Shown in pieces: positions 1 through 59,516 of a DNA stretch of 64,000 bases. Within the stretch, counting starts at the first letter, position 1. Each line of letters starts with the position of its first letter. Made by a program: the position numbers and the translations under genes. Source of the DNA: Patescibacteria group bacterium. Its GTDB lineage: Bacteria > Patescibacteriota > Patescibacteriia > XYB2-FULL-38-15. Location of the stretch: assembly GCA_041737355.1 (NCBI GenBank), contig JBGSRW010000006.1, forward strand, positions 83,734-147,733, in the 5' to 3' direction. Under the pieces are notes generated by a model that saw nothing but the letters and a program-made list of their open reading frames with translations, ran no database searches and was not told where the DNA came from.

Positions 1-295
1 GGCCATTTTTATTTCATAATCTTGATCCAGATTGGAAATAATAATGACCGGAATTCCGCGTGTCTCAGGATTTTTTTTCAGGTCGGCTAAAACCGAAAAT
101 CCCTCTTTCATGGGCAAAACTATGTCGAGAAGAATCAAATCCGGCTTCTCCTTCTCCGCCGAAATAATTCCTCCTGTCCCCGAATCGGCCGTCACAACCC
201 TATACCCCTCTTTCGCGAGTTTGGTTTTATAAATTTCCCGGATGTCCTCTTCGTCCTCCACGATTAGGACTGTCTGTTTGTTGCTCAAGGCCATA
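1..295 (-). CDS. Response regulator receiver domain protein (3' end truncated by window edge)
   Basis: Reverse-strand translation from ATG at 295-293 gives MALSNKQTVLIVEDEEDIREIYKTKLAKEGYRVVTADSG...PDLILLDIVLPMKEGFSVLADLKKNPETRGIPVIIISN, a CheY-like receiver with the phospho-acceptor Asp in LLDI; it sits directly downstream of the histidine kinase. No stop inside the window. Confidence 0.6.
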
Positions 296-320
296 TTTTT
301 AATGCTAATCTTCAAACTAT

Positions 321-2039
321 TTAGGCGACAGGCAGAGTAAAATAAAACGCTGTTCCTTTGTTTTCCTCGGATTCAAACCAGATTGCCCCGCCATGAATTT
401 TAATAATTTCAAAGGTGATAAACATTCCTAAACCGGTTCCCTCGATATTCGCCCGCTTAACATTAGAGCCGCGGAAAAATCTGCTGAAAATCTTTTCTTG
501 TTCGCCTTCGGGAATGCCAAGACCTTCATCGGCTATCTTAACCTGAATATATTTTCCGCCCTTCCCGGTAAAGCCGTAGCGGGGAATTATCTCCTCGGGA
601 GCGACCCGGTTCGCCGCCGAAACGGTTATTTCTATTTTTTTGCCCGATGGAGTAAATTTTACCGCATTGCTCAAAAGGTTCAAAACAACTTGGAGAATCC
701 TGTCTTTATCGGCTAAAACTTTTGGCATGGCCGGCGAAGGTTTATTCCAGACAAAATCAATATCTTGACTTTTTATACTGACGGCTGAATTTCCCGCCGC
801 CTCGTCAACAATATCCTCAATCTGACAGGGCGCCGGCTGAACCTTCAATCTCGCCTCATCAAGCCTTGAAACATCGAGCAGATCATTTACGAGAGAAAGC
901 AGGCGGTCGTTCGAGGTATAAAGTTGTTCGACAATTTCTCTTTGTTTCAGATTAATTTTACCCAGATCCTCATTCCTTAACATTTCAAGCGACCAGCGGA
1001 AAACATTAAGCGGATTTTTCAGCTCATGAGCGGTGTAGCTCACAAAATTTTTCCTCATCTGGTTAAGTTCTTGAAGTTTAAGGTTATTTTTGCTCAACTC
1101 CTTGTTGGCTGTATTCAGATCCTTGGTCCTCTTGGCTATCTGAATTTCTAGTCCCCGGTGCGAAGCGGCTACCTCGCCTGCCATTTCATTAAATTGATTG
1201 GCGATTTTCTCAAATTCATCGCCCGTTTCAAGCTCGACCCGGGAATCGAGGTCTTTGGAAAAATTTTCTATTCCTTTTTCCAGCACCAGCAAAGGTTCGA
1301 TAAAAAATATTTTGACGAGCATGAAGATAAATACGATGAGGAGAACAAAAAATAATAAAATAACCGGCATCAGATCCTTCAGTTCCCTTTCTACGTCTGT
1401 AACGCTTTCGGCCGACATATCTACCCCGACTATCCCGACAATTTGCCCCTGGATATTCTTTAGCGGAGCGTAAGCGGAAAGAAAACATCCCCATTTATCG
1501 CAGGCAATATCCTCGTCCGCCCCGACCGTTCCGGAAAAAGCCGCGAGCATGGCGGGATATTCGGACAAAATATATTCTTCACCAACGTGCGCCCTGTCTT
1601 CTTCGGGATCGATTACCCCGTTTCTGTTTGAATCCTCGGGAATTGTGCTATCGAGAACAAAAATTCCGACCCCCCCCTGCCCGGAAAGCCGCAGGGTATA
1701 AATACTATTGACTAGAAGGGTAGCCGCCTGGATTTTATGTAACGGCGCGACTAATCTCTCGTATATCGCGGACGACTCGTCGGCCGGAGAAACGATTGTT
1801 TCGTGGCTGGCTACGTCAATACTGGCGGAAGACACTTGGGCTAAAGTTATGAGCTCCCTTTTCAAGCTACCGCGAACGTCTTTCATGATCTCCCGGTAGA
1901 TAAAATACCCTCCAAAGATAAAAACTGTCAGGGCAATTATCCCCAAAGATAAACCAAATTTAAAGGATAGGTTGATTTTTTTTAAAAACTTCTTTTCCCC
2001 CATAGATTTAAATATCCTCTTGAATCTATTATACCACAA
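321..2039 (-). CDS. Sensor histidine kinase (TM, extracellular sensor domain, HAMP, HisKA, HATPase_c)
   Basis: 572-aa ORF with an N-terminal TM segment, a second TM (LLFFVLLIVFIFMLV), an H-box YTAHELKNPL and a C-terminal GTGLGM...GGAIWFESEENKGTAFYFTLP ATPase G-boxes. Confidence 0.85.
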   Translation of the reverse strand: MWYNRFKRIFKSMGEKKFLKKINLSFKFGLSLGIIALTVFIFGGYFIYREIMKDVRGSLKRELITLAQVSSASIDVASHETIVSPADESSAIYERLVAPLHKIQAATLLVNSIYTLRLSGQGGVGIFVLDSTIPEDSNRNGVIDPEEDRAHVGEEYILSEYPAMLAAFSGTVGADEDIACDKWGCFLSAYAPLKNIQGQIVGIVGVDMSAESVTDVERELKDLMPVILLFFVLLIVFIFMLVKIFFIEPLLVLEKGIENFSKDLDSRVELETGDEFEKIANQFNEMAGEVAASHRGLEIQIAKRTKDLNTANKELSKNNLKLQELNQMRKNFVSYTAHELKNPLNVFRWSLEMLRNEDLGKINLKQREIVEQLYTSNDRLLSLVNDLLDVSRLDEARLKVQPAPCQIEDIVDEAAGNSAVSIKSQDIDFVWNKPSPAMPKVLADKDRILQVVLNLLSNAVKFTPSGKKIEITVSAANRVAPEEIIPRYGFTGKGGKYIQVKIADEGLGIPEGEQEKIFSRFFRGSNVKRANIEGTGLGMFITFEIIKIHGGAIWFESEENKGTAFYFTLPVA

Positions 2040-3155: not shown

Positions 3156-3689
3156 TTATAACCAATAAACCGCACCGCGCACTGCAGTTTCTATTCTTGA
3201 AGGCCCAGAATCCGCCGCCTCCAGATCAATGATGTCGATCGAATCAATCTCAAAAAAATAATTTAATTTTTCCAATTTCTCCAGATAACCGAGGGTTGCG
3301 GAAAAATTCCCTTCCGCGGTTATCTCGAGAGGAACCTTAAAATAATTTCCTTCTTCAACTTTCTTATTGATATCAAATTTTATTTTTTGTTTTATGTCTT
3401 TACCGGCTAAAGTTTCCAAAAATTTTACGAATTCGAATTCATCGCTTACCTCGGAAAAAAATTCTTTTGAAACTTCCCCGACTTCGGCCTCGCGCTTCTC
3501 GATATTTCTCGTAACTTCCTCGAGCGACGGCTGCCTCAGATAATCCTCGGAAATCCTTTCTGCATCAGTCCGCAGGGCGTTTCTTTGTTCCACGATGTCG
3601 GAAACCGTTATAGACAAAAGTAAAACCGTGCTGCCAAATAAAACCGCCAGGAGGGAGAGATAAGCCAAATTTGCTTTATTAAAAATCAT
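3156..3689 (-). CDS. pilO: PilO-like type IV pilus biogenesis protein
   Basis: 177 aa with an N-terminal TM (LAYLSLLAVLFGSTVLLLSI), a coiled-coil and a C-terminal alpha/beta domain, directly following pilN; size and topology are typical of PilO. Confidence 0.5.
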   Translation of the reverse strand: MIFNKANLAYLSLLAVLFGSTVLLLSITVSDIVEQRNALRTDAERISEDYLRQPSLEEVTRNIEKREAEVGEVSKEFFSEVSDEFEFVKFLETLAGKDIKQKIKFDINKKVEEGNYFKVPLEITAEGNFSATLGYLEKLEKLNYFFEIDSIDIIDLEAADSGPSRIETAVRGAVYWL

Positions 3690-4214: not shown

Positions 4215-5267
4215 TCAGTCTGTTTTCAGCCCCGCCAGGGCCAATCCGATGGCCGTAGCGAAAGCGACCGGCGATCCCGGCAATTTGATGCGTTGTTTCC
4301 TTTCCGGCCGGATATTGGCAAATGGATTGCCGAGCGAAACTGCCAATTTTGTTTTTGAGGCGAGATATTCCGGCAATTTTTTCGTCTGGGCAACTCCGCC
4401 GCAAATAAATAATTCCCTAACTTCCCCGCCGCCCCTTTGACCTTCAAATTTCAAAACTTGTTTTATTTCTTTTATAATCAACGAAAAGTTTTTCTCAATA
4501 ATTTTATATTCCTTGGATTTATTGTCTTCTAAGCCGCACTCTATTTTTCTGGTTTCGGCTTCGGCTAAAGAAATTTTTAACCCCGACGCGATCTCTTCGG
4601 CGATTCCCGAGCCGGAAACCGGGATACTTATACTAAACTGTATCGCCCCCTTATCATACAAGATAAGGCTGGAACGATTGGCCCCGAGATCAAGCACCAA
4701 TTTGGGCGCTTCTTCTGATTTTTTATCTTTTTTTTCCGGGATCAGACAATTGATGATTGCCCCCGCTTCTATTTCCAGCGTTTCGGTTTGCAGGCCGGCC
4801 GCGGCTAAAACCTCAAGGTAATCGTCAACAATTTTTCTGGGAGCTACACCGACCATTACCTCCATAAGATCGTTATCCGGTTTCTCCGGCTGAAACGGCT
4901 GCCAGTCTATATAAACTTCTTCAGCTTTGAGGGGAAAATGGTGTTGTATGCCCTCAAGAATAAAATCGTTAACTCTTTTGGCTTCCATGGTTGCCGGTAT
5001 CTCAATGACTTTGATAAAAGTTTTTAGTTCGGGCAAACAAACGGAAACTTTCTTGGTCCTGATTTTTCTTCCCTTGGCGGAGGATACCAATTTTTTGATG
5101 GCCTTGGCAGCCTTGTCCTTATCCTTGATAACCCCTTTCTCCATCAAGCCCGGCGGCAACACCAGTTCGTTCCACGACCTGATGTTTTTTTGTCCGTCAA
5201 GCCAAACCAATCTGAGCGATGTGTCGCTGATATCAAGGCCGAAAGAATTTTTTGAAAAAAAAGACAT
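4215..5267 (-). CDS. pilM: Type IV pilus assembly protein PilM (actin-like ATPase fold)
   Basis: 350 aa beginning MSFFSKNSFGLDISDTSLRLVWLDGQ, with GLDIGAN/LDLGANRSSL-type motifs of the PilM/FtsA actin-like family; located upstream of pilN/pilO. Confidence 0.8.
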   Translation of the reverse strand: MSFFSKNSFGLDISDTSLRLVWLDGQKNIRSWNELVLPPGLMEKGVIKDKDKAAKAIKKLVSSAKGRKIRTKKVSVCLPELKTFIKVIEIPATMEAKRVNDFILEGIQHHFPLKAEEVYIDWQPFQPEKPDNDLMEVMVGVAPRKIVDDYLEVLAAAGLQTETLEIEAGAIINCLIPEKKDKKSEEAPKLVLDLGANRSSLILYDKGAIQFSISIPVSGSGIAEEIASGLKISLAEAETRKIECGLEDNKSKEYKIIEKNFSLIIKEIKQVLKFEGQRGGGEVRELFICGGVAQTKKLPEYLASKTKLAVSLGNPFANIRPERKQRIKLPGSPVAFATAIGLALAGLKTD

Positions 5268-13513: not shown

Positions 13514-16027
13514 TTAAACAAACGTTACGCTGGCAGCCCGGTCTTCGGTTTCTTTGAACCTCATTAATCTCACTCCTTGCGTCGCCCGGCCCAGAGTGGA
13601 AATGCTCTTGAAAGGCATTCTGATAACCTGGCCGAATTTGGAAATAATAATCAGATCCCTTTCATCCTTGCTCGAGGCGACTTGAGCGGAGATAATTTTT
13701 CCCGTCTTTGGGGTAACCTTGGCTGTTTTAATGCCGGAACCGCCGCGGCCCTGGACTTTATAATTTTTGAGATTGGTTCTTTTGCCAAAACCGTTTTCCA
13801 TTACCACCAGAAGTTCAAGCAAATTTTTGGAAATAAGGTTAGGATCGATCACGTCCATGCCGACGACCGAATCTTTTCCCTTGATTCTTACGCCGCGGAC
13901 TCCGCTTGCCGCCCGACCCATCGGCCTGACGTTTTTTTCTTTGAATCTGATGGCCTGACCCTGGGCGGTGATCAAAATTATTTCGTCGTTGCCGGTTGAA
14001 GGTTTAACCCATTCCAAACGGTCGCCGTCGTGGAGCTTTATGGAAATAAGGCCGGAACGGCGGACGTTTTCAAAATCTTTAAGTTCAACTTTCTTGATGA
14101 CGCCTTCTCTTGTAACCATGACGAGGTACTTGAAATCTCCCTCGCCAAGTTCTTTGGCGGAGAGAATGGCGGAAATTTTTTCCTCCGGCGCGAGTTGCAG
14201 GAAATTCACGATCGCCTGACCCTTCGAGGTGCGGGAGGCCGCGGGAACATCGTAGGCTTTGAGCTGGAAGACGCGGCCGCGGGTTGTGAAGAAAAGCAGG
14301 TCGAGATGGGTTGTCGTGGAAATCAGATGTTCAACGGTATCCTCTTCTTTGGTAGTAAGACCCATCACTCCTTTGCCGCCTCTGCTTTGGGTCCGGAAAG
14401 TTTCCGGGGAAAGACGTTTGATATATCCGTCAGCGGTCACGACGATAATAGTCGCTTCGTCGGGAATCAAATCTTCAACTGAAAAATCCTTGACCGCGTG
14501 GGCAATAATCTGGGTTTTTCTTTCGTCTCCGTACTTCTCTTTCAGCCCGTCTATATCTTTTTTGATCAAACCCAAAATTCTTTTCGGCGAAGCGAGAATC
14601 GTTTCGAGTTCCTTTATCAGGGCCATTTTTTCTTTGAGCTCCTCTTCAATTCTCATCCGCTCGAGGTTGGCGAGCTGTTGCAATTTCATTTCGAGGATTG
14701 CCACTGCCTGAACCTCGGTCAATTTGAACCGCTGCATCAAGTTGACCCTGGCTTCGTCCTTGTCTTTGGACTTCTTTATCAATTTTATGACCGCGTCGAT
14801 ATTGTCGACGGCAATCTTCAATCCTTTCAAAATATGCGCCCGCTCCTTGGCTTTTTTCAATTCGAATTCTGTCCGCCGGCGGATGACTTCCTTACGGTGA
14901 GCCAAATAATATTCCAAAATCATTTTCAGATTCAAAACTTTCGGCTGGATACCGTCGACCAAAGCCAGCATGTTCACGTGGAAAGAATCTTGAAGCTGAG
15001 TAAGATCAAAAAGCTGGTTTAAAATCTTTTTAGGGTAGGAATCTTTTTTAAGTTCAATAACAATCCGGACGCCTTCCTTGTTTGACTCGTCGCGGAGATC
15101 TTTAATGCCTTCGATTTTTTTATCCTTGACCAGAAGAGCAATCTTCTCGAGCAAGGTGGCTTTATTAACCTGGAAAGGTATTTCCGAAACGATAATTTTG
15201 AAATGTCCGGCTTTATCCTCCATAATTTCCGTTTTGCCGCGCATGACGATTGAGCCTTTGCCGGTCGCGTATGTCTGCTTGATGGCGTTTATATCATATA
15301 TAATCCCGCCGGTCGGAAAATCCGGACCTTTAACGAATTGAACAAGTTCCTCGACGTCGCAATCGGGATGCTCAATAAGATGGCTAATCCCGTCGCAAAT
15401 TTCCGAAAGATTGTGGGGAGGAATACTGGTCGCCATACCCACGGCGATACCCATGGTCCCGTTCAAAAGCAAGTTCGGAAGACGGGCCGGCATTACCTGG
15501 GGTTCCTTGTGAGAACCGTCGTAGTTGGGAATAAAATTAACCGTTTCTTTTTCTATATCCAAAATCATTTCCTCGGCGATGTGCGCCAATTTCGCTTCGG
15601 TATAACGCATGGCTGCCGGAGAATCTCCGTCCATCGAACCGAAGTTTCCCTGACCCCAGACCAAGGGGTAGCGCATGGCAAAATCCTGAGCCATTCTGAC
15701 CATCGAATCGTAAACCGCCACGTCGCCGTGCGGATGATATTTGCCCAAAACTTCGCCGACCACGGTCGCCGACTTCCTGAATTTGGCTCCCGGTTTCAAA
15801 CCGACATCCCACATGGCGTAAAGAATCCGGCGATGGACCGGCTTCAAACCGTCCCGGACGTCCGGAAGGGCGCGGGCAATAATAACCGACATGGCATAAT
15901 CCAAATAAGACTCCTGCGCTTCTTTTTCAATAAGGCAGGGCTCTATTTTACCCATGTAATCCTTCTTCGGTTGTTCTCCTTCGGCCTCGGGCTTTGCCTG
16001 ACCGAAAGGTTTTTTCGCTTTAGCCAT
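13514..16027 (-). CDS. gyrA: DNA gyrase subunit A
   Basis: 837 aa with [22 protein letters not shown], the active-site Tyr region, the GyrA-box-like motif and C-terminal beta-pinwheel repeats. Confidence 0.95.
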
Positions 16028-21146: not shown

Positions 21147-22370
21147 ATGGATCTAACTAATCTAACCGAAAACAAAAACAAAGACGAAAAACAGACGATG
21201 GAATCCCTGCTTGCCGATGCGACTTTTTTGAAAATTCCGAAAGTCGGCGATGTTATTAAGGGAAAAGTTTTGACCGCGAGCAAAAATGAGGTTCATCTCG
21301 ATGTTGAGGGTTTTAAAACCGGAGTTGTCCGGGGCCGCGAGCTCTGCGACGAGTCAAGCGATTATTCTGATCTGAAACCGGGCGACGAAATCGAGGCGAC
21401 TGTCATGGAACTGGAAAACGAAAAAGGCGAAGTTGAACTTTCCTTCCGTTTTGCCGGCCATAAAAAGGTCTGGGACAAGCTCTCAGAAATGCAGAAAGTC
21501 GGAGAAATTATTATTGCCACGGTTGTTGACGCGAACAAAGGCGGCCTGATGATGAACGTGAATAAAATTATCGGATTTCTGCCTGTCTCGCAATTGGCGC
21601 CCGAACATTATCCGCGCGTTCCCGGCGGCGAGAAAACCAAAATTTTGGAAAAATTAAAAACATACGTCGGCATACAGATGGAAGTTAAAATCATCGATGT
21701 CGGCGAACAGGACGACAAACTGATCGTTTCGGAAAAAGCGGCCTGGGAAGAAAAGCAGAAAAATATTATTTCCGCCTACAAAGTCGGGGATATTGTTGAG
21801 GGAACTGTTTCCGCCCTGGCCGATTTCGGGATTTTCGTGAAATTCGACAATCTTGAAGGTCTGGTCCATATTTCCGAACTCGCCTGGCAGAGAATCGACC
21901 ATCCCCAAGATGTCGTCAAAGCCGGAGAGAAGATAAAAGCGGAAATCATCGGAGTTGAGGGTTCGAAGATTTTCCTCTCCATGAAAAAACTGATTGAAGA
22001 TCCCTGGAAAAAAATCAACGATAAATACAATATCGGACAAATTGTCGAAGGCAAGGTTTTGAAAATCAATCCTTTCGGCCTCTTCGTAGAACTTGATCCG
22101 GAAATCCACGGCCTGGCCCACATTTCCGAACTCTCCAGCAAACAAATCCAGTCCCCGACCGAAGTTGCCAATATCGGCGACACCTTGAAATTCAAAATCA
22201 TTTCCATCGAACCGGTTGACCACAGATTAGGTTTAAGTTTGAAAGGGGCCAAGGAAAAATCTCCGGAAAAAACCGAGGAAAAACCGTCCGAGGAAAAAAC
22301 CGAAGCGCCGAAAGAGGAAGTAAAAGAAGAAAAAGCTGAAGAGAAAAAAGAAGAAGCAAAAAAAGAGTAA
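21147..22370 (+). CDS. rpsA: 30S ribosomal protein S1 (four S1 repeats, Lys/Glu-rich tail)
   Basis: 407 aa with repeated S1 OB-fold motifs (GDVIKGKV, GDIVEGTV, GQIVEGKV) and a C-terminal EEKKEEAKKE tail. Confidence 0.9.
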   Translation: MDLTNLTENKNKDEKQTMESLLADATFLKIPKVGDVIKGKVLTASKNEVHLDVEGFKTGVVRGRELCDESSDYSDLKPGDEIEATVMELENEKGEVELSFRFAGHKKVWDKLSEMQKVGEIIIATVVDANKGGLMMNVNKIIGFLPVSQLAPEHYPRVPGGEKTKILEKLKTYVGIQMEVKIIDVGEQDDKLIVSEKAAWEEKQKNIISAYKVGDIVEGTVSALADFGIFVKFDNLEGLVHISELAWQRIDHPQDVVKAGEKIKAEIIGVEGSKIFLSMKKLIEDPWKKINDKYNIGQIVEGKVLKINPFGLFVELDPEIHGLAHISELSSKQIQSPTEVANIGDTLKFKIISIEPVDHRLGLSLKGAKEKSPEKTEEKPSEEKTEAPKEEVKEEKAEEKKEEAKKE

Positions 22371-39135: not shown

Positions 39136-40737
39136 TTATTCGGAGGCTTTTGCCCGATATTGCAACGCCTCGGCAACATGAGGCAAAGAAATTCTTTCTT
39201 CGCCGCCGAGATCGGCAATCGTCCGGGAAATCTTGAGCAGCCGGTAATAGGCGCGGGCCGACAAATGCATTTGGGTTACGGCATTTTTCAAAAACTCCTG
39301 ACTCGCTTCGTCAATCCGGCAAAACTCCTTGATTAACTTAGAGGGAATCTCGGCGTTGGTCATCACTTTTAATTTTTTATATCGCTCGCGCTGGAGTTTT
39401 CTCGCCCCCTCGACTCTTTTTTTAATATTTTCCGAACTTTCCGCCACCTGCGTTTCGGCCAATTTTTCAAATTTCACCCGCGGTACTTCGATGTGAAGGT
39501 CTATTCTGTCCAGGAGCGGGCCGGAAATTTTTTTCTGATAACGCAAAATCGCCTGGGGCGAGCAGGTGCAAAATTTTTCCGGATCGGTATGATATCCGCA
39601 AGGACAAGGATTTCTCGCCGCTACCAAAATAAATTTTGCCGGAAACTGCAAACTCCCGGAAGCCCGGGAAATTGTAACCAGTCCGTCCTCGAGCGGCTGG
39701 CGCAAGCTTTCAAGCACGGCCCGGCTGAATTCGGGAAGTTCGTCCAAAAATAGAACGCCGCGATGCGCCAAGCTAACTTCCCCCGGCCGCGGCCAGGTCC
39801 CGCCGCCGACCAAGGAAACGTTTGAAGCGGTATGATGCGGACTGCGGAAGGGCCGGCGGATAACAAGCGGCTGACCCGAGGGTAAAACTCCGGCAACGCT
39901 GTAAATCCGCGTTACTTCAAGCGCTTCATCGATCGAAAGAGCCGGCAAAATAGAGGGCAATGTTTTTGAGAGCAAAGTCTTCCCAGAACCCGGCGGACCG
40001 GACATGAGGAGGTTGTGCCCGCCGGCCGCGACAATCTCCAGGGCGCGCTTGGCGTACTCTTGACCGCGGACATAAGCCATATCGTAATTTTCCTCATCGG
40101 ATGTTTCTCCCTGATTAAAGTCAAAGGGTTCGGTCCGGGAAAACGGCGCTATCTGATTTTTCCCGGCAAGATGCCCGACCAGTTCGAAAAGATTTTTTAC
40201 CGAGATAATTTCCACTCCCTCGATCAGGCTTGCTTCCGGTGCGTTGGCCTCCGGAACATAAATATTTTTGATTCCCCTCGCCCTGGCCGCCGAAGCGATG
40301 GCCAGCATCCCGTTCACCGGACGGAGCATCCCGTCCAGGGCAAGCTCCCCGACAAAAAGAGAATCGGGACAAAATAAATTGGCCACCGGTTTGGCCTCCG
40401 GCAAAATTTCCATATTAACTCCGGCCGGCGCCGCTTCCACTTGCGGTAATTTTAAAAAACCCGAAGCCAAAAGAATACTTATGGCAATCGGCAAATCGTA
40501 AGAAGGCCCTTCTTTTTTCAAATCTGCCGGAGCGAGATTGACCGTTACTCTGGTTCTCGGAAAGGGAAGATTGCTGTTTTTTATGGCGGCCCGCACTCGT
40601 TCGCGCGATTCCTGAACGGCCATGTCCGGAAGGCCGACCACGGTAAAATGGCTTAATCCCCCGGAAATATCGGCTTCCACCTCAACCAATTCGGCATCCA
40701 GGCCGACGATTGCCGCGGATAATATTTTTGAGGACAT
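39136..40737 (-). CDS. comM: Mg-chelatase-like AAA+ ATPase ComM/YifB
   Basis: 533 aa starting MSSKILSAAIVGLDAELVEVEADIS (Lon-like N-domain), Walker A GPPGSGKTLL, and the C-terminal Mg_chelatase_C region. Confidence 0.9.
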   Translation of the reverse strand: MSSKILSAAIVGLDAELVEVEADISGGLSHFTVVGLPDMAVQESRERVRAAIKNSNLPFPRTRVTVNLAPADLKKEGPSYDLPIAISILLASGFLKLPQVEAAPAGVNMEILPEAKPVANLFCPDSLFVGELALDGMLRPVNGMLAIASAARARGIKNIYVPEANAPEASLIEGVEIISVKNLFELVGHLAGKNQIAPFSRTEPFDFNQGETSDEENYDMAYVRGQEYAKRALEIVAAGGHNLLMSGPPGSGKTLLSKTLPSILPALSIDEALEVTRIYSVAGVLPSGQPLVIRRPFRSPHHTASNVSLVGGGTWPRPGEVSLAHRGVLFLDELPEFSRAVLESLRQPLEDGLVTISRASGSLQFPAKFILVAARNPCPCGYHTDPEKFCTCSPQAILRYQKKISGPLLDRIDLHIEVPRVKFEKLAETQVAESSENIKKRVEGARKLQRERYKKLKVMTNAEIPSKLIKEFCRIDEASQEFLKNAVTQMHLSARAYYRLLKISRTIADLGGEERISLPHVAEALQYRAKASE

Positions 40738-40757
40738 ATTTTGAAAACTTAAAAATG

Positions 40758-41234
40758 CTAATTTCCAGTGCCTAAACTTTTTTGCTTGGAATAAAAAATT
40801 TCAAAAATTAAAGTCAGGCCGACTCCGGCCACGATATAAACATCCGCCAGATTAAAAATGGAATAATCAAAAAAACTTATAAAATCGACAACATAGCCGA
40901 AAAATAGCCGGTCAATCAAATTGCTGATTGCCCCAACAACGATCAGACTAAGGCAGGCAACCAAAAAATAATTTTTCTTCCGGTAATTTTTGAAAAGAAG
41001 CCAAATAATTACCGCCAAAACCGCCCCTATCAGGCCGTAAAGCAGACCGGCGGAAAGTTCAAGATTGAAAATCATATTAAAATTTCTGTAAAAAAGCAAA
41101 CCGCAAAATTTTTTTGACCATAAAAAAATCCCTTCTTCGGGAATTTTCAAGGCCAGCCATTTAGTCAACCGGTCGACCAAAAACAAAATGCTTATCAAAA
41201 AATTGATAAGCATTGTTTTCCGAATAAAAGACAT
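40758..41234 (-). CDS. lspA: Lipoprotein signal peptidase II
   Basis: 158 aa with 4 TMs and the conserved GAISNLIDR and FNLADVYI motifs. Confidence 0.8.
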   Translation of the reverse strand: MSFIRKTMLINFLISILFLVDRLTKWLALKIPEEGIFLWSKKFCGLLFYRNFNMIFNLELSAGLLYGLIGAVLAVIIWLLFKNYRKKNYFLVACLSLIVVGAISNLIDRLFFGYVVDFISFFDYSIFNLADVYIVAGVGLTLIFEIFYSKQKSLGTGN

Positions 41235-41235
41235 T

Positions 41236-41622
41236 TTATTTACCGCTTAGCTTCTTTTTACAATCCATACAGGCGGAAGAAACCGGACGAGCCTCGAGCC
41301 GTTTCGGGTCAATCGGCTTGCCACAGTAACGGCAAATCCCGTAAGTTCCTTCTTCTACCCTCTTTAGGGCATCATTAACGTCGCGCAGGGAGGATTCGAG
41401 GGTTCTCTCAAGAGTAAGATTATCGCTGTAAGCCGCAACTTCAGCCGCATTCTCGTCTTCGGCATCACCGAGAGACGGAAAGTCGGCATCGTAATCCGAG
41501 GCGTTATGCGGATTTTTTTTGGTAAATTGGGCCAATTCCGTTTCCAGCTTTTTCTTTTCTTCCAAAAGCTGATCCTCGATTTTCTTCAAAAAGTCTTTAT
41601 CAAGAGTGTTTTTTACTACCAT
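41236..41622 (-). CDS. DksA/TraR-family C4 zinc-finger transcription factor
   Basis: 128 aa with a coiled-coil N-terminus and a C-terminal CRYCGKPI...CMDCKK finger. Confidence 0.8.
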   Translation of the reverse strand: MVVKNTLDKDFLKKIEDQLLEEKKKLETELAQFTKKNPHNASDYDADFPSLGDAEDENAAEVAAYSDNLTLERTLESSLRDVNDALKRVEEGTYGICRYCGKPIDPKRLEARPVSSACMDCKKKLSGK

Positions 41623-41724
41623 ATAATTATCAATTTATGGCTTTTCGCATTTATTTAATAATAACCTCTTAGAATTAAGTATATATTAAGAACGGTTTTC
41701 CATCAACCCCCGGCCAAAAGACAA

Positions 41725-42084
41725 ACTTAAAAGGGCGCAACTGCGCCCTTATATAATATAATTAATAAATGGCCGTTGCGCCCTTATGACCCCGCGACAC
41801 ACCCTTTTGTCCTCCGGAGAGGATTAAAGAGATACCGGTCTTGGGGTAAGGAACGCTTCTTGCTGACTTCTAAAGCGAAGCTCCTCTACCGTTCTTATGG
41901 TGAGTCCAAAGGTGAACCCACCGAAAAGTCATTTTTGTTTTTGTTTTTGGTTCAGGTCCTGCCAGCTAAAGACCTTGACGAAGAGTAGAGAAGAGAGAAA
42001 TTTTGCCGAAACTTCCACCGGTGTCCGTTTGCCTCCGTGCTTTTACCGGGGTTTTCACCAAAACGTCTCCGATTTCAATGTTCT
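41725..42084 (-). ncRNA. Candidate ~350-nt non-coding RNA or long structured leader of dksA (identity unresolved)
   Basis: No ORF of at least 60 aa on the minus strand. A near-consensus promoter is immediately upstream (next feature). A 3' hairpin AAGGGCGCA-gt-TGCGCCCTT (41731-52) plus UUUU lies about 100 nt before dksA, and a GCGCCCTTAT motif repeats twice. Confidence 0.3.
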
Positions 42085-42090
42085 ATAAAT

Positions 42091-42120
42091 ATTATACCAC
42101 GAAAAAGCGGTTCTTGTCAA
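42091..42120 (-). promoter_or_regulatory. Near-consensus sigma-70 promoter (TTGACA-18 nt-TATAAT) firing toward lower coordinates
   Basis: Minus strand: TTGACA (42120-42115) + AGAACCGCTTTTTCGTGG + TATAAT (42096-42091). Confidence 0.5.
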
Positions 42121-42292
42121 TCCTCAAACTTTGGCTTATTTGAGAGAAAAAGGTTTTTATATCCACTCCGAGCCACGAGTTATCCCCAGAATAGACAACT
42201 TTATGTTCACAACTTATCCACATTTACTCATTTTTATTAACTTTTCCCGAAAAATATCAGCCGCTGCTCCGAATATTGAAAAAAACAGCCCC

Positions 42293-43381
42293 TTATTTCT
42301 TAGCGGCGGGTAAACTTATCCCAAAAATCGCTCCTTCAAAGTCGGAAGTCAGCCACTTGGCCCCTTTTTTAGCCAGATCTATAATATTTTCCCCATAATA
42401 ATCGGGCTGCCGTCCCAGGCGAACTAAAAAATTTGCCAACAAATCCTTGGATGTGGACAAAATCGTCTGCTTGCCCGAGGACGACAGAAAAAACTCCCGT
42501 TTCAGGTCCGGTACAGAGAGATACTCAACCTCTCGCCCGGATATTTTGGTCTTTCCGAAGACAAAGGCATCGGGGTTAGCGACAATTTCCCTGACTATAA
42601 CTCCGTCGGGCAATTTTTTTTCTCTGGTTTCCGGCAAGATGACGGCCAAAACGTTTTTGAGATAATCGCCGGCCTTTTTGGACAAGTAGCCGTTATCTGT
42701 CGCCAGAAGATACAGATATCCTGTTTCGTTTTTGGTTATTTTAAGCTGGTTTATTTCCCAAAAATCAGCTTTAAGTCCCGGAGCGGACAAATTTTCCCAT
42801 TTAAAACCGTTTCCGAGATAAAGCTGGACCGGAAAACGGCGGGAAGCCCGGTTCCAGGCAGCCAGTCTCCCTTTTTGGTCGGCCAAAGAAAAATTTTTCT
42901 GACTTAAGGCCGCCAAAACCTCTTTCAAGGCAAACTTGGTGTTGGTAATCGCAACTTTTCCCTCGTCTTCGACAATATAGTTGAAATTCTCTTCTTCCAG
43001 CTGGCCCTTCAATGTGTTGAAATCGGCCGGACTGAGCTTCCCCCAAAAAATAAAATCCTCAAAACCGGGCAAAACGGCAAAAGAAGTTTCAGAAGACTTC
43101 GGCGCGACGCTCCTGAAAAGCGTTTCGGCCTGTCCGGACGCCTCTTTGGAAAGCATCCTCTCGGAGATATCACGGAGCCAGGTTTCGTCAACCGATCCGC
43201 CGGCCGAACGGTGCCAAAAAATAACCGCTTGGGCCGGTGCCATATCCAAAAAATCATCATGGCTCACGAGAAAGCTGAAATAAACCCAGGCGGTTGCCGC
43301 CGCAACCGAACCGACAACCAAAAACCCTGCTGCAATTAGCAAGGTTTTTGTTTTATGTTTTTTGAAAAAGTCTAAAAGCAT
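42293..43381 (-). CDS. Hypothetical N-terminally membrane-anchored protein
   Basis: Trimmed to ATG 43381 (MLLDFFKKHKTKTLLIAAGFLVVGSVAAATAWVYFSFLV) with RBS AGGAGGAG; the longer ORF would overlap the pnp 3' end; 362 aa; no recognizable domain. Confidence 0.55.
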   Translation of the reverse strand: MLLDFFKKHKTKTLLIAAGFLVVGSVAAATAWVYFSFLVSHDDFLDMAPAQAVIFWHRSAGGSVDETWLRDISERMLSKEASGQAETLFRSVAPKSSETSFAVLPGFEDFIFWGKLSPADFNTLKGQLEEENFNYIVEDEGKVAITNTKFALKEVLAALSQKNFSLADQKGRLAAWNRASRRFPVQLYLGNGFKWENLSAPGLKADFWEINQLKITKNETGYLYLLATDNGYLSKKAGDYLKNVLAVILPETREKKLPDGVIVREIVANPDAFVFGKTKISGREVEYLSVPDLKREFFLSSSGKQTILSTSKDLLANFLVRLGRQPDYYGENIIDLAKKGAKWLTSDFEGAIFGISLPAAKK

Positions 43382-43397
43382 TTTTTGACTCCTCCTC

Positions 43398-45614
43398 TTA
43401 TCTTCTCGGCCTGTCGTGGTGCGGCCTGTCTGATCTTGGCCGGTCAAAACGCCTTTCTCCCCTGTCGCCGCCGTTGTCACCTTCAATCAGGCGTCTGATA
43501 GAAAGATCGACCCTGCCTTGTTCGTCCACCTTAATAACTTTTACTTTGACGACGTCGCCGATATTCACAATGTCGGTTACTTTGCCGACGCGGTAAGGCG
43601 CCAGTTCGGAAATATGGACCAATCCTTCTTTATGCGGCAAAATCTCAACAAACGCCCCGAAATCAAGGATGCGCGTTACCGGACCCTGGAAAATTTCCCC
43701 GACCTCGGCTTCCTGGACCAAGCTTTTTATCCAAGCAACGGCTTTCTCAAGCGCCGTAGGAACAGCGGAACATACCGTAACCATACCGTCGTTGGCTATA
43801 TCAATCGTCACGCCGGTATTATCAATAATTTCGTTGATAATTTTGCCGCCGGGACCGATGACATCGCGGATTTTATCGGGATTAATCTTGAAAGTAATAA
43901 TGCGCGGAGCATAAGGAGAAAGTTCCGGACGCGGCACGGCGATAGCCTGTCCCATGACGCCCAAAATCTCCATCCTCGCCTCTTTCCCCTGTATTAGGGT
44001 TTTTTCCACTATCTCAAAAGTCAGCCCGGATGTTTTTGTATCCATTTGAATGGCGGTAATGCCATTTTTTGTTCCAGCGATCTTGAAATCCATCCCACCC
44101 TTGCTGTCTTCCAAATCCTGAAGGTCGGTTAAAATTTTATATTTTCCCTTTTCGTCCGAAGCCAAGCCCATAGCAATCCCGGCAACCGGCTCTTTAATCG
44201 GCACACCGGCATCCATCAGGGCCAAAGTCGAAGCGCAGGTTGAAGCCATTGAAGACGAGCCGTTGGAACTCAAAACTTCGGAAACAACCCGGATGGTGTA
44301 AGGAAACAAATCTGTCTTCGGCAAAACCGCCAAGAGAGCGCGTTCCGCCAAGGCACCGTGTCCGATTTCCCGCCGGCCCGGACCGCGCAGAGGCCCTGCC
44401 TCGCCGACCGAGAAAGGAGGAAAATTATAATGATGCATGAATCTCTTCTTGCCGCTTACTTCCATTCCGTCCAAAGTCTGCTCATCGGCCGGAGAGCCGA
44501 GTGTCACGGCGGAAAGAACGTGCGTATCGCCGCGGGTAAAATATCCCGAACCATGAGTTCTCGGCAGCAAAGCCACTTCCGAGGAAAGAGGCCTTATTTC
44601 GGTTAGAGACCGCCCGTCAACCCTGATTCCTTTTTCCAAAATAGCCCGGCTGACTTCCTCTTCAACCAAACCATAGAAAAACTCCAGGGCATCTTTTCTC
44701 TTATCCTTGCCAATGCTCTCGGATTTTAAATACTCTTCGAGATCTTTCTCTATTTTATTTAGAACTTCCTGCCGCGAAGCCTTGGTTGATTTTTTTCCTT
44801 CAAAAAACTTTTCTGCCAATTCTTTCTGTATAAAATCTTTTACTTTTTTCTTCAGCCCGGCTTTTTCCGCGGCTTCTTCCGGATCTTCCTCGGCAATAGC
44901 CATTTTTTCCTTACCAACTTCGTCGCGGATAGTTTCAATCAACTTTATAATCGGTTTAAGATGTTTTTGCCCAAAAGCTATCGCCTCAAGAACGGTGGTT
45001 TCCAAAACCTCGCTCGCCCCGGCTTCAAGCATACAAACTTTTTCCGGAGTTCCGGCTACAACTACGTCCAGCAAACTTTTTACTCTCGCTTCATAGCTCG
45101 GATTAATGACCCATTCCCCGCCGACTTGTCCGATTCTGATACCGGCAATCGGCCCGTTCCAGGGAATATCGGAAATCGAAAGAGCGACCGAAGCGGCAAC
45201 CATGGCCGGAATATCCGAATCATTCTCCTGGTCCCAAGACAAGGTAGAGGTAACAACCTGAATATCGTTTCTGATTCGCTCATCAAAAAGCGGCCTAATC
45301 GCACGATCAATCAGGCGCGCAGTTAAAATTGCCTCGTCCGTCGGACGACCTTCGCGTTTGATAAAACGCGAACCTTTAATTTTTCCGGCGGCATAAAGTT
45401 TTTCTTCGTAGTCAACCATCAAAGGAAAGTAATCAATGCCTTCCCTGATGTTTCCCGACATGACGGCCGTGCCCAAAACCAAGGTGTCTCCGTAACGGAC
45501 CGTACAGCTGCCGTTGGCTTGGCCGGCAAATTTCCCCGTTTCCACAATTAAATTCTTGCCTCCCCACTCGATCTCAAATTTTTTTACCATAAAATACCTT
45601 TCTACGCTGACCAT
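43398..45614 (-). CDS. pnp: Polynucleotide phosphorylase
   Basis: 738 aa with two RNase PH domains, KH (IRDVIGPGGKIINEI), S1 (GEIFQGPVTRILDFGAFVEI) and an extra Arg/Asp-rich C-terminal tail (GDRGERRFDRPRSDRPHHDRPRR). Confidence 0.95.
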   Translation of the reverse strand: MVSVERYFMVKKFEIEWGGKNLIVETGKFAGQANGSCTVRYGDTLVLGTAVMSGNIREGIDYFPLMVDYEEKLYAAGKIKGSRFIKREGRPTDEAILTARLIDRAIRPLFDERIRNDIQVVTSTLSWDQENDSDIPAMVAASVALSISDIPWNGPIAGIRIGQVGGEWVINPSYEARVKSLLDVVVAGTPEKVCMLEAGASEVLETTVLEAIAFGQKHLKPIIKLIETIRDEVGKEKMAIAEEDPEEAAEKAGLKKKVKDFIQKELAEKFFEGKKSTKASRQEVLNKIEKDLEEYLKSESIGKDKRKDALEFFYGLVEEEVSRAILEKGIRVDGRSLTEIRPLSSEVALLPRTHGSGYFTRGDTHVLSAVTLGSPADEQTLDGMEVSGKKRFMHHYNFPPFSVGEAGPLRGPGRREIGHGALAERALLAVLPKTDLFPYTIRVVSEVLSSNGSSSMASTCASTLALMDAGVPIKEPVAGIAMGLASDEKGKYKILTDLQDLEDSKGGMDFKIAGTKNGITAIQMDTKTSGLTFEIVEKTLIQGKEARMEILGVMGQAIAVPRPELSPYAPRIITFKINPDKIRDVIGPGGKIINEIIDNTGVTIDIANDGMVTVCSAVPTALEKAVAWIKSLVQEAEVGEIFQGPVTRILDFGAFVEILPHKEGLVHISELAPYRVGKVTDIVNIGDVVKVKVIKVDEQGRVDLSIRRLIEGDNGGDRGERRFDRPRSDRPHHDRPRR

Positions 45615-59459: not shown

Positions 59460-59516
59460 CTCTCACCTCCTTTCGTGGCTTTATCTTAAAACAAAAACAA
59501 ACCAATTGTCAATCGT

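Follow-up and report, generated by a model that had tools for sequence, protein, structure and literature searches.

A candidate stand-alone gene for a pseudoknotted RNA, with linked DnaA boxes, in Patescibacteria

Several large orphan non-coding RNAs (ncRNAs) of bacteria, among them the raiA motif RNA, OLE, and ROOL and GOLLD, are several hundred nucleotides long, pseudoknotted and restricted to particular lineages, and were of unknown function when they were discovered. Large and ornate RNAs with such restricted distributions have repeatedly proved to be ribozymes or RNA-only complexes, and historically they have led to new ribozymes, ribonucleoproteins (RNPs) or regulatory principles. The Patescibacteria, or Candidate Phyla Radiation (CPR), hold a large share of bacterial diversity in minimal genomes, and to our knowledge almost no regulatory RNAs have been characterised in them. 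Here we describe an element of this general size from a Patescibacteria group bacterium, found in a stretch of 64,000 nucleotides (contig JBGSRW010000006.1 of assembly GCA_041737355.1, positions 83,734 to 147,733), which is referred to below as the window and whose numbering is used throughout. The element is a promoter-to-terminator unit on the minus strand that precedes a gene for a DksA/TraR-family protein.

We read this unit, with a probability of about 0.6, as a stand-alone gene for an uncatalogued, highly structured ncRNA of ~360 nt that is conserved in one clade of the Patescibacteria/CPR, probably acts in trans and may be tied in its expression to DnaA. The RNA family is absent from Rfam 15; its general kind, a small RNA (sRNA) gene running from promoter to terminator, is ordinary.

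The transcription unit and its fold

The unit opens with a -35 element TTGACA at 42120-42115, an 18-nt spacer and a TG-extended -10 element TGgTATAAT at 42099-42091 on the minus strand, a 12/12 match to the sigma-70 consensus and the sole perfect promoter match within the 3.1 kb scanned (40500-43600). Of 17 homologues examined, 16 have an equivalent promoter of the form TTGAC-17/18-TAnnnT, which a display of 25 loci also shows. At its other end there is a terminator hairpin AAGGGCGCAGTTGCGCCCTT at 41750-41731 on the minus strand, with eight pairs of which six are G-C, followed by TTAAGTTTGT; the unit closes with the hairpin AAGGGCGCAGUUGCGCCCUU and a short U-tract, and the reading frame of the DksA/TraR-family protein starts at 41622, 108 nt past the terminator. 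An initial annotation of this DNA had described an ORF-free unit (one without an open reading frame) with a textbook promoter, ending in a hairpin and short U-run about 100 nt before dksA, and this description is borne out at both ends. Its further statement that the region contains no ORF of at least 60 aa is correct for the sense strand, where the longest frames between promoter and terminator are of 29-31 aa, and incorrect for the opposite strand, where mechanical ORFs of 63-70 aa occur at three places (41776-41988, 41897-42088 and 42037-42240). None of these is conserved: across ten homologues there is no conserved coding frame, and the longest stop-free stretches vary erratically between 22 and 157 codons. 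The layout of promoter, RNA and terminator is common to all 27 homologous loci.

Folded as a transcript of 361 nt, the sequence has a minimum free energy (MFE) of -123.1 kcal/mol compared with -96.9 +/- 4.9 for shuffled versions (z = -5.4, with none of 100 shuffles equal to it), and the homologue in locus L003 gives z = -3.5. Two covariance models (CMs) of the family find the window's copy, model R1 at 41850-42001 with 110 bits and model R2 at 41725-41789 with 62.8 bits. The shared fold was obtained from RNAalifold on two subfamilies and from a CM-based alignment of 19 core sequences, and these agree on an architecture in which a hairpin P1 is followed by P2, a long-range pyrimidine/purine helix (CUUCUCUACU/GGUAGAGGAG) that closes a junction of several helices, with the hairpins P2a and P2b and an A-rich single strand between them, and then by P3, P4 and P5. 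In the window its components are placed as follows.

42091 to 42120, minus strand: sigma-70-type promoter with TG-extended -10, 12/12, with a counterpart in the homologues
41727 to 42084, minus strand: predicted RNA transcript of ~358 nt, indicated by the fold z-score, the matches to models R1 and R2 and the RNAalifold consensus
41994 to 42070, minus strand: P1 hairpin, with a conserved base GGAGAcGUUUUG / CAAAAuUUCUCU and a variable distal part that includes GGAAGUUUCGGC
41980 to 41993, minus strand: 5' strand of P2, comprising CUUCUCUACU, one mismatch and UUC, which pairs with 41881-41894
41955 to 41974, minus strand: P2a hairpin, whose loop GCUGGC (41966-41961) contributes the 5' strand to the pseudoknot
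41932 to 41948, minus strand: A-rich strand AAAAACAAAAACAAAAA of the P2 junction, left single-stranded by the consensus folds of both subfamilies
41899 to 41922, minus strand: P2b hairpin, GGUGGGUUCA / UGGACUCACC, alignment columns 172-181 with 187-196
41881 to 41894, minus strand: 3' strand of P2, comprising GAA, one unpaired position and GGUAGAGGAG
41855 to 41880, minus strand: P3 hairpin, whose loop GUCAGC (41867-41862) contributes the 3' strand to the pseudoknot
41789 to 41847, minus strand: P4 hairpin domain, columns 249-276 with 285-309, with compensatory changes
41721 to 41785, minus strand: P5, a two-tier 3' hairpin with outer stem AAGGGCGCAAC/GUUGCGCCCUU, an inner stem and a 22-nt AU-rich apical loop

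Within the core alignment of 19 sequences, which is itself fitted to the model, 82.9% of cells are paired, as against 70.7% in shuffles and ~46% when the partner strand is slid (~26-63% across the slid-partner controls), and changes on both sides affect 34 of the 42 core pairs where shuffles show 18.7 +/- 2.2 (0/500 as high). P2 is 92% paired and 9 of its 15 pairs are altered on both sides, while P2a is 97% paired with both-side changes in all six of its pairs. A U-G pair in P2 (columns 18/201) is kept in 18 of the 19 sequences, and near-invariant U-G pairs of this kind in P2 identify the minus strand as the one transcribed. The base of P1 is paired in the RNAalifold consensus (columns 16-27 with 87-98), compensatory changes included; its distal segment is absent from the close relatives L183, L201 and L202. 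The GGUU...RACC frame of P2b is kept across subfamilies, and P4 varies in length, with longer versions in the L001 type. Loop-loop pairing between P2a and P3 forms a pseudoknot that is 88.7% paired although it lies outside the CM, and at least five complementary loop pairs occur: CUGAC/GUCAG (L001 type), GCUGGC/GUCAGC (the window), CCGAU/AUCGG (L125), CCGGC/GCCGG (L155) and AUUGG/CCAAU (L006).

The 3' domain P5 includes the small hairpin at 41750-41731 and ends in the U-tract, and so doubles as an intrinsic terminator. An alignment of P5 from all members (MAFFT with RNAalifold) was out of register and gave no structure, and a CM from a well-aligned subset was used instead; in the resulting R2 alignment 89.4% of cells are paired compared with 73.6% in shuffles, with a covariation score of 0.528 against 0.235 that none of 500 shuffles attained. 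The two-tier form is the MFE structure in all 22 homologues examined, with an AU-rich apical loop of 15-22 nt across the family, and the P5 of L189 lacks a following U-run, from which it follows that P5 has been conserved as a module in its own right and is more than a terminator. There is also a duplicated GGGCGC-type segment in the window's P5 (41731-41785), the 3' half of which can form the small terminator hairpin by itself. Members of the L001 type offer a further alternative, between the 3' strand of P4 and the 5' strand of P5. These alternatives leave room for a conformational switch, and both forms keep the terminator. As for further long-range contacts, the 5' leader can be paired by eye with the segment that follows the A-rich strand, convincingly in L163, L133, L154 and L005 and weakly in the window, where this pairing competes with P2b; the RNAalifold alternative pairs GAAC (42083-42080) with GUUC after P3, and these strands are invariant and hence without covariation support. 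With a conserved unit in 28 loci, covarying helices and a promoter and terminator of its own, the structured ncRNA that the initial annotation had put forward as a candidate is strongly supported.

Distribution and gene context

Including the window, the family comprises 28 loci, the 27 homologues coming from Patescibacteria genomes and metagenomes and belonging to relatives of Uhrbacteria and Magasanikbacteria. Members were reached by three routes: synteny with pnp, a scan of metagenomes with an RNA pattern, and unbiased anchoring on dksA. The polynucleotide phosphorylase (PNPase) encoded 1.3 kb upstream of the unit has its best relatives, at 51-60% identity, in metagenome-assembled genomes of Patescibacteria (Uhrbacteria, Magasanikbacteria, Falkowbacteria and others), in which the order pnp, an unknown protein of ~400 aa, a gap, DksA-like, lspA and comM recurs; the gap in L001, L003, L004 and L005 contains a homologous promoter-RNA-terminator unit. 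The metagenome scan used an RNA pattern of two conserved blocks, with nhmmer and a CM as filter, and added 17 distinct members. Anchoring on DksA-like homologues at 59-84% identity was used to remove the bias of that pattern, and the RNA is present at six of the seven loci so anchored for which there was DNA; L204 has dksA and no RNA. No members were found on viral contigs, since all 12 pattern matches in IMG/VR were due to chance and none fits the CM. In more distant CPR, L026 (~4300-4650) and L050 (~14450-14840) have promoter-to-terminator units of 150-170 nt directly upstream of DksA-like genes. The two-tier 3' hairpins of these short units resemble P5, but the P5 CM detects neither, and we do not treat them as truncated relatives.

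The immediate neighbours of the unit in the window are these.

41236 to 41622, minus strand: DksA/TraR C4 zinc-finger protein of 128 aa (Pfam PF01258), the downstream neighbour
41678 to 41706, minus strand: promoter-like site TTGATG-17-TATACT, 9/12, between the RNA terminator and the DksA/TraR gene
42293 to 43486, minus strand (12270 to 13553 in L003): fast-evolving protein of 397 aa here and ~360-490 aa across loci, encoded between pnp and the RNA at most of them; it has a membrane helix at its N-terminus and matches no Pfam domain

The downstream protein falls below the NCBIfam cut-offs, with 59 bits where DksA requires 115.5 and 77 bits where YteA requires 134, and we therefore call it a DksA/TraR-family protein and not DksA. 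In 22 of the 27 informative loci the RNA directly precedes such a gene and has the same orientation, and these loci include members recovered from the RNA pattern alone or by dksA anchoring. This is the position expected of a long cis-regulatory leader, a riboswitch or attenuator of the DksA/TraR gene in which the RNA would respond to a signal and P5, as expression platform, would govern read-through into dksA-lspA-comM, and the initial annotation had likewise entertained a riboswitch-like control of dksA. The U-tract in the window is short enough to make some read-through conceivable, and the duplicated GGGCGC would permit P5 two alternative foldings. However, both P5 conformations retain a terminator hairpin beside the U-tract, so that there is no obvious ON state, and the gap between terminator and dksA contains a promoter-like site of 9-12/12 in most of the dksA-linked loci. 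Four members occur in other contexts altogether (L006, L082, L179 and L189, beside cmk/rnhB, an Hsp20-like gene, gmk/ssb or other genes), while in the closest relative, L134, an ORF of 666 aa and ~2 kb separates an unchanged RNA from dksA. With 360-420 nt and five domains, the RNA is also far larger than known leaders.

Direct base-pairing of the RNA with the translation-initiation region of dksA was considered and rejected, as the duplex energies lie at z = -1.2 to 0 relative to shuffles and the predicted sites are inconsistent. Given the second promoter, the four unlinked members, the L134 insertion, the L204 locus without RNA and the lack of complementarity to the start region, we read the order pnp, unknown membrane protein, RNA, dksA-like, lspA, comM as conserved synteny and not as cis-regulation, and we consider a leader function unlikely. 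The intervening ORF of L134 (5102-7102, minus strand) is of high GC content, has no Pfam match and looks like a recent foreign insertion. The membrane-helix protein upstream of the RNA is a possible partner for it.

DnaA boxes, the A-rich strand and a proposed role

Two sites related to the DnaA box are located upstream of the RNA promoter in the window.

42214 to 42222, minus strand: perfect DnaA box TGTGGATAA as read on the RNA sense strand, ~100 nt upstream of the -35
42180 to 42188, minus strand: DnaA-box-like site TGGGGATAA with one mismatch, which has a counterpart at -68/-69 in L134, L183, L201 and L202

The 64-kb window has no other perfect TTATCCACA than the first of these, which is followed after 2 nt by a weaker box-like 9-mer, TGTGAACAT. 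The same arrangement recurs through the family. Of the 25 perfect boxes in the 267 kb that make up 25 family loci, 24 are situated in the 300 nt that precede the RNA promoter, typically at -102 to -111, in uniform orientation and with a weaker box 2 nt later, and this includes members that are not linked to dksA; at least one perfect box is present in 20 of the 25 loci (~80%). From the sequence, the simplest inference would be that the RNA is transcribed under the influence of DnaA, or else that the boxes serve to titrate DnaA.

The tight linkage between boxes and unit might instead indicate that there is no RNA gene here, and that what has been conserved is a DNA-level element, DnaA-binding or origin-like, or else an unannotated small protein gene on one strand or the other, for which the 63-70-aa mechanical ORFs on the plus strand could be cited. 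A chromosomal origin was rejected, since GC skew is negative throughout the window with no change of sign, the flanking genes from pnp to comM are co-directional and good boxes number only one or two. The ORFs keep neither frame nor length across homologues. Compensatory changes and strand-specific U-G pairs point to selection on a folded minus-strand transcript, and in the family loci the promoter and terminator precisely bracket the element. We regard any such interpretation without an RNA as exceedingly improbable.

The A-rich strand of the P2 junction is interrupted by pyrimidines about every 6 nt, and the tract is present in five of the six members sampled without bias. Exact copies occur in the four pnp-synteny members with a tract and in two from the unbiased set, and three others carry a degenerate version. 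The exact 13-mer AAACAAAAACAAA recurs twice more in the window, at 59489-59501 and 21170-21182, and when up to one mismatch is allowed there are four matches where 0.77 are expected, one of the four being a one-mismatch site that overlaps the RNA's own copy. The copy at 59489-59501 lies 16 nt upstream of the start of uvrC, which has no Shine-Dalgarno (SD) sequence, and may be due to chance, leaders in this genome being A-rich. We rejected the idea that the A-rich strand mimics the mRNA leader of ribosomal protein S1, as the copy at 21170-21182, at the 5' end of the S1 gene, is coding (the S1 N-terminus, MDLTNLT..., is conserved); this copy is inside a conserved N-terminal extension, but the codons concerned are not conserved in homologues. 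Of the 46 long ORFs in the window, only 11 have an SD-like motif no more than 20 nt from the start, and leaders are A/U-rich, which suggests that initiation in this genome is mostly SD-independent. Because A-rich leaders are the norm here, it is conceivable that the A-rich strand mimics an initiation region.

The promoter of the RNA is very strong, and on that ground the RNA would be abundantly transcribed. We propose that it acts in trans, most plausibly as the scaffold of an RNP, and would be recognised through P2, whose sequence is conserved, and through the A-rich strand, which is exposed; besides these two features, the strong promoter and the variety of gene contexts lead us to this picture of an abundant trans-acting RNA. 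Were DnaA to modulate its synthesis, the RNA would report on the state of replication or growth, or feed back on it. For a genome of 1 Mb it is expensive to keep an RNA of ~360 nt that is pseudoknotted and built of five conserved domains, which argues for an important job, and the consensus promoter and conserved DnaA boxes likewise point in that direction. A bolder version, which we hold only tentatively and think doubtful as a whole, would see in it a new class of large pseudoknotted RNA that is peculiar to a clade of Patescibacteria, is wired to DnaA and forms an RNP or ribozyme coupled to replication or growth, in genomes of ~1 Mb with very few regulators; its target might be RNA polymerase or SD-independent translation.

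The RNA might also be self-sufficient, that is, a ribozyme or RNA-only assembly in which the pseudoknotted junction would be an active site or a multimerisation interface. The two long-range tertiary pairings that can be modelled, the P2a-P3 pseudoknot and the possible contact of 5' leader and junction, would suit this, as would the high sequence conservation of the junction nucleotides and the precedents already mentioned. However, there is no cleavage-site signature, substrate or co-located gene that points to a reaction, and conservation of P2 and of the A-rich strand is predicted equally by recognition of the RNA by a protein. On balance we find an RNA-only function improbable.

Several points weigh against a stand-alone, trans-acting and DnaA-tied RNA, and should be set beside the evidence above. 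The ends of the RNA are predicted, the 5' end from its spacing to the -10 element and the 3' end from the U-tract, and abundance and any processing are similarly deduced from sequence. The fitting of the core alignment to the modelled structure inflates the pairing values for P2, P2a, P2b and P3, and of these P2b and P3 pair poorly (58-75%) and align poorly in divergent members. The A-rich 13-mer and CUCUACU were themselves the search pattern, so that their invariance in the metagenome members is partly a matter of ascertainment, and the A-rich tract is absent from two members of Magasanikbacteria type, L004 and L206. Some 140 nt separate the DnaA boxes from the predicted start, a long distance for repression of the classical kind, and the boxes could instead titrate DnaA or have to do with the 3' end of the upstream gene. 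The association with the DksA/TraR gene is strong, and no gene was found whose position follows that of the RNA in every member. What the analysis supplies at this point is a seed alignment and two covariance models with which the family can be annotated, coordinates for transcript mapping, and a link between DnaA and an ncRNA that is testable.

Comparison with known RNAs

Searched at gathering score with the 4227 families of Rfam 15, the window yields five tRNAs only. With relaxed filters and E<=10, an 801-nt input yields only terminator look-alikes far below threshold, and nothing at all for RNase P, transfer-messenger RNA (tmRNA), 6S RNA, signal recognition particle (SRP) RNA or riboswitches. 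There is no family match either in six small homologous loci, in eleven larger ones or in a 451-nt slice of L133, the scans at E<=10 being those of three short inputs and the larger loci having been scanned at gathering score. The initial annotation had found by eye none of the conserved cores of tmRNA, SRP RNA or 6S RNA, and the window and 18 homologous loci give no Rfam match to any of these; RNase P RNA, which it had considered, likewise finds no support, even at E<=10.

RNase P RNA is similar in length and in its long-range pairing, and CPR genomes need one. The initial annotation had taken a P4-like motif, GGAAGUUUCGGC, as a weak hint of this RNA, and the motif does exist (42017-42006); it is the sole look-alike, has no partner in conserved region V (CR-V), and is situated in the distal P1 segment that L183, L201 and L202 lack. 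A P4 helix made by conserved region I (CR-I, GGAAAGUCCGG-like) and CR-V was not found in the RNA, and RF00010 and RF00011 give no match. The ends of RNase P RNA pair with one another (as its family's P1) and enclose the molecule, whereas here there is an independent 3' hairpin that is a terminator. We therefore reject this identity.

The likeness to tmRNA consists in a size of ~360 nt, a strong promoter, pseudoknots and an exposed A-rich single strand. A tmRNA has a tRNA-like domain, a tag reading frame and a CCA end, but the family RNA is without the first two and ends in a terminator hairpin; ARAGORN and Rfam find no tRNA-like domain at the site in the window and 20 loci. The identity is excluded by contig L125, which holds a canonical tmRNA (42-448, minus strand, RF00023 at 120 bits and also found by ARAGORN) as well as the family RNA (~3234-3647), the two being 2.8 kb apart; recognition of this gene means that tmRNAs of the clade are detectable and that the family RNA is not one of them. 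The L125 tmRNA has an unusual predicted tag, AKTTLANAKAAFTWKMPSFVPVVA (...PSFVPVVA), and adjoins a cluster of five tRNA genes.

With 6S RNA the family would share abundance (predicted here from the promoter), a strong sigma-70 promoter and an adjacent gene of the DksA family, whose proteins bind RNA polymerase, a neighbour that would be fitting for an RNA directed at that enzyme. However, 6S RNA is half the size, its model finds no match, and the branched P1-P5 fold of the two subfamilies is no rod with a central bubble. SRP RNA was rejected on similar grounds, there being no match to RF00169 or RF01854 at E<=10 and no hairpin resembling domain IV.

A housekeeping RNA of one of these kinds, RNase P, 6S or SRP RNA, could in principle have diverged so far in this CPR clade that covariance models miss it. 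A length of ~360 nt, a very strong promoter, apparent single copy and variable context would all fit such an RNA, the weak P4-like motif could be added, and no RNase P, 6S or SRP gene was seen in the 64-kb window or in the family loci examined. Yet the relaxed searches of the three short inputs found none, nor did the scans of 17 loci, while the same library recognises the clade's tmRNA at 120 bits, which excludes that RNA outright in L125. The P4-like motif is in a P1 segment deleted from close relatives, and the topology does not fit, with unpaired ends, a terminator hairpin at the 3' end and neither a central-bubble rod nor a domain-IV-like hairpin. Concealed housekeeping identity is in our view very unlikely, and we retain the reading of an uncatalogued stand-alone RNA.

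Hfq-binding sRNAs of class II are known for a bipartite signature of an (ARN)n tract and an intrinsic terminator, and the family RNA has similarities with these, as AAAAACAAAAACAAAA can be read as five or six A-R-N triplets and the molecule ends in a hairpin and U-tract. Class II sRNAs, however, are far smaller and less structured, and the pyrimidines of the A-rich strand are more conserved than would be expected of an 'N' position. No homologues of Hfq, CsrA or ProQ were found in the window or in the family loci examined, which is a statement about these loci and not about whole genomes. A search of the open-access literature returned nothing relevant on the motifs, on CPR ncRNAs or on links between DnaA boxes and CPR, and an earlier description elsewhere is possible.

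There remain the large orphan RNAs with which we began. The family RNA has no Rfam 15 match to raiA, OLE, ROOL or GOLLD, though all of these are in Rfam 15, and it differs from them in its Patescibacteria hosts, in having no members on viral contigs, in its DnaA-box promoter and in a 3' terminator that is a conserved two-tier module. It resembles them in its size class, in a multi-domain fold supported by covariation, in its restriction to a lineage and in a genomic neighbourhood that is conserved without being obligatory.

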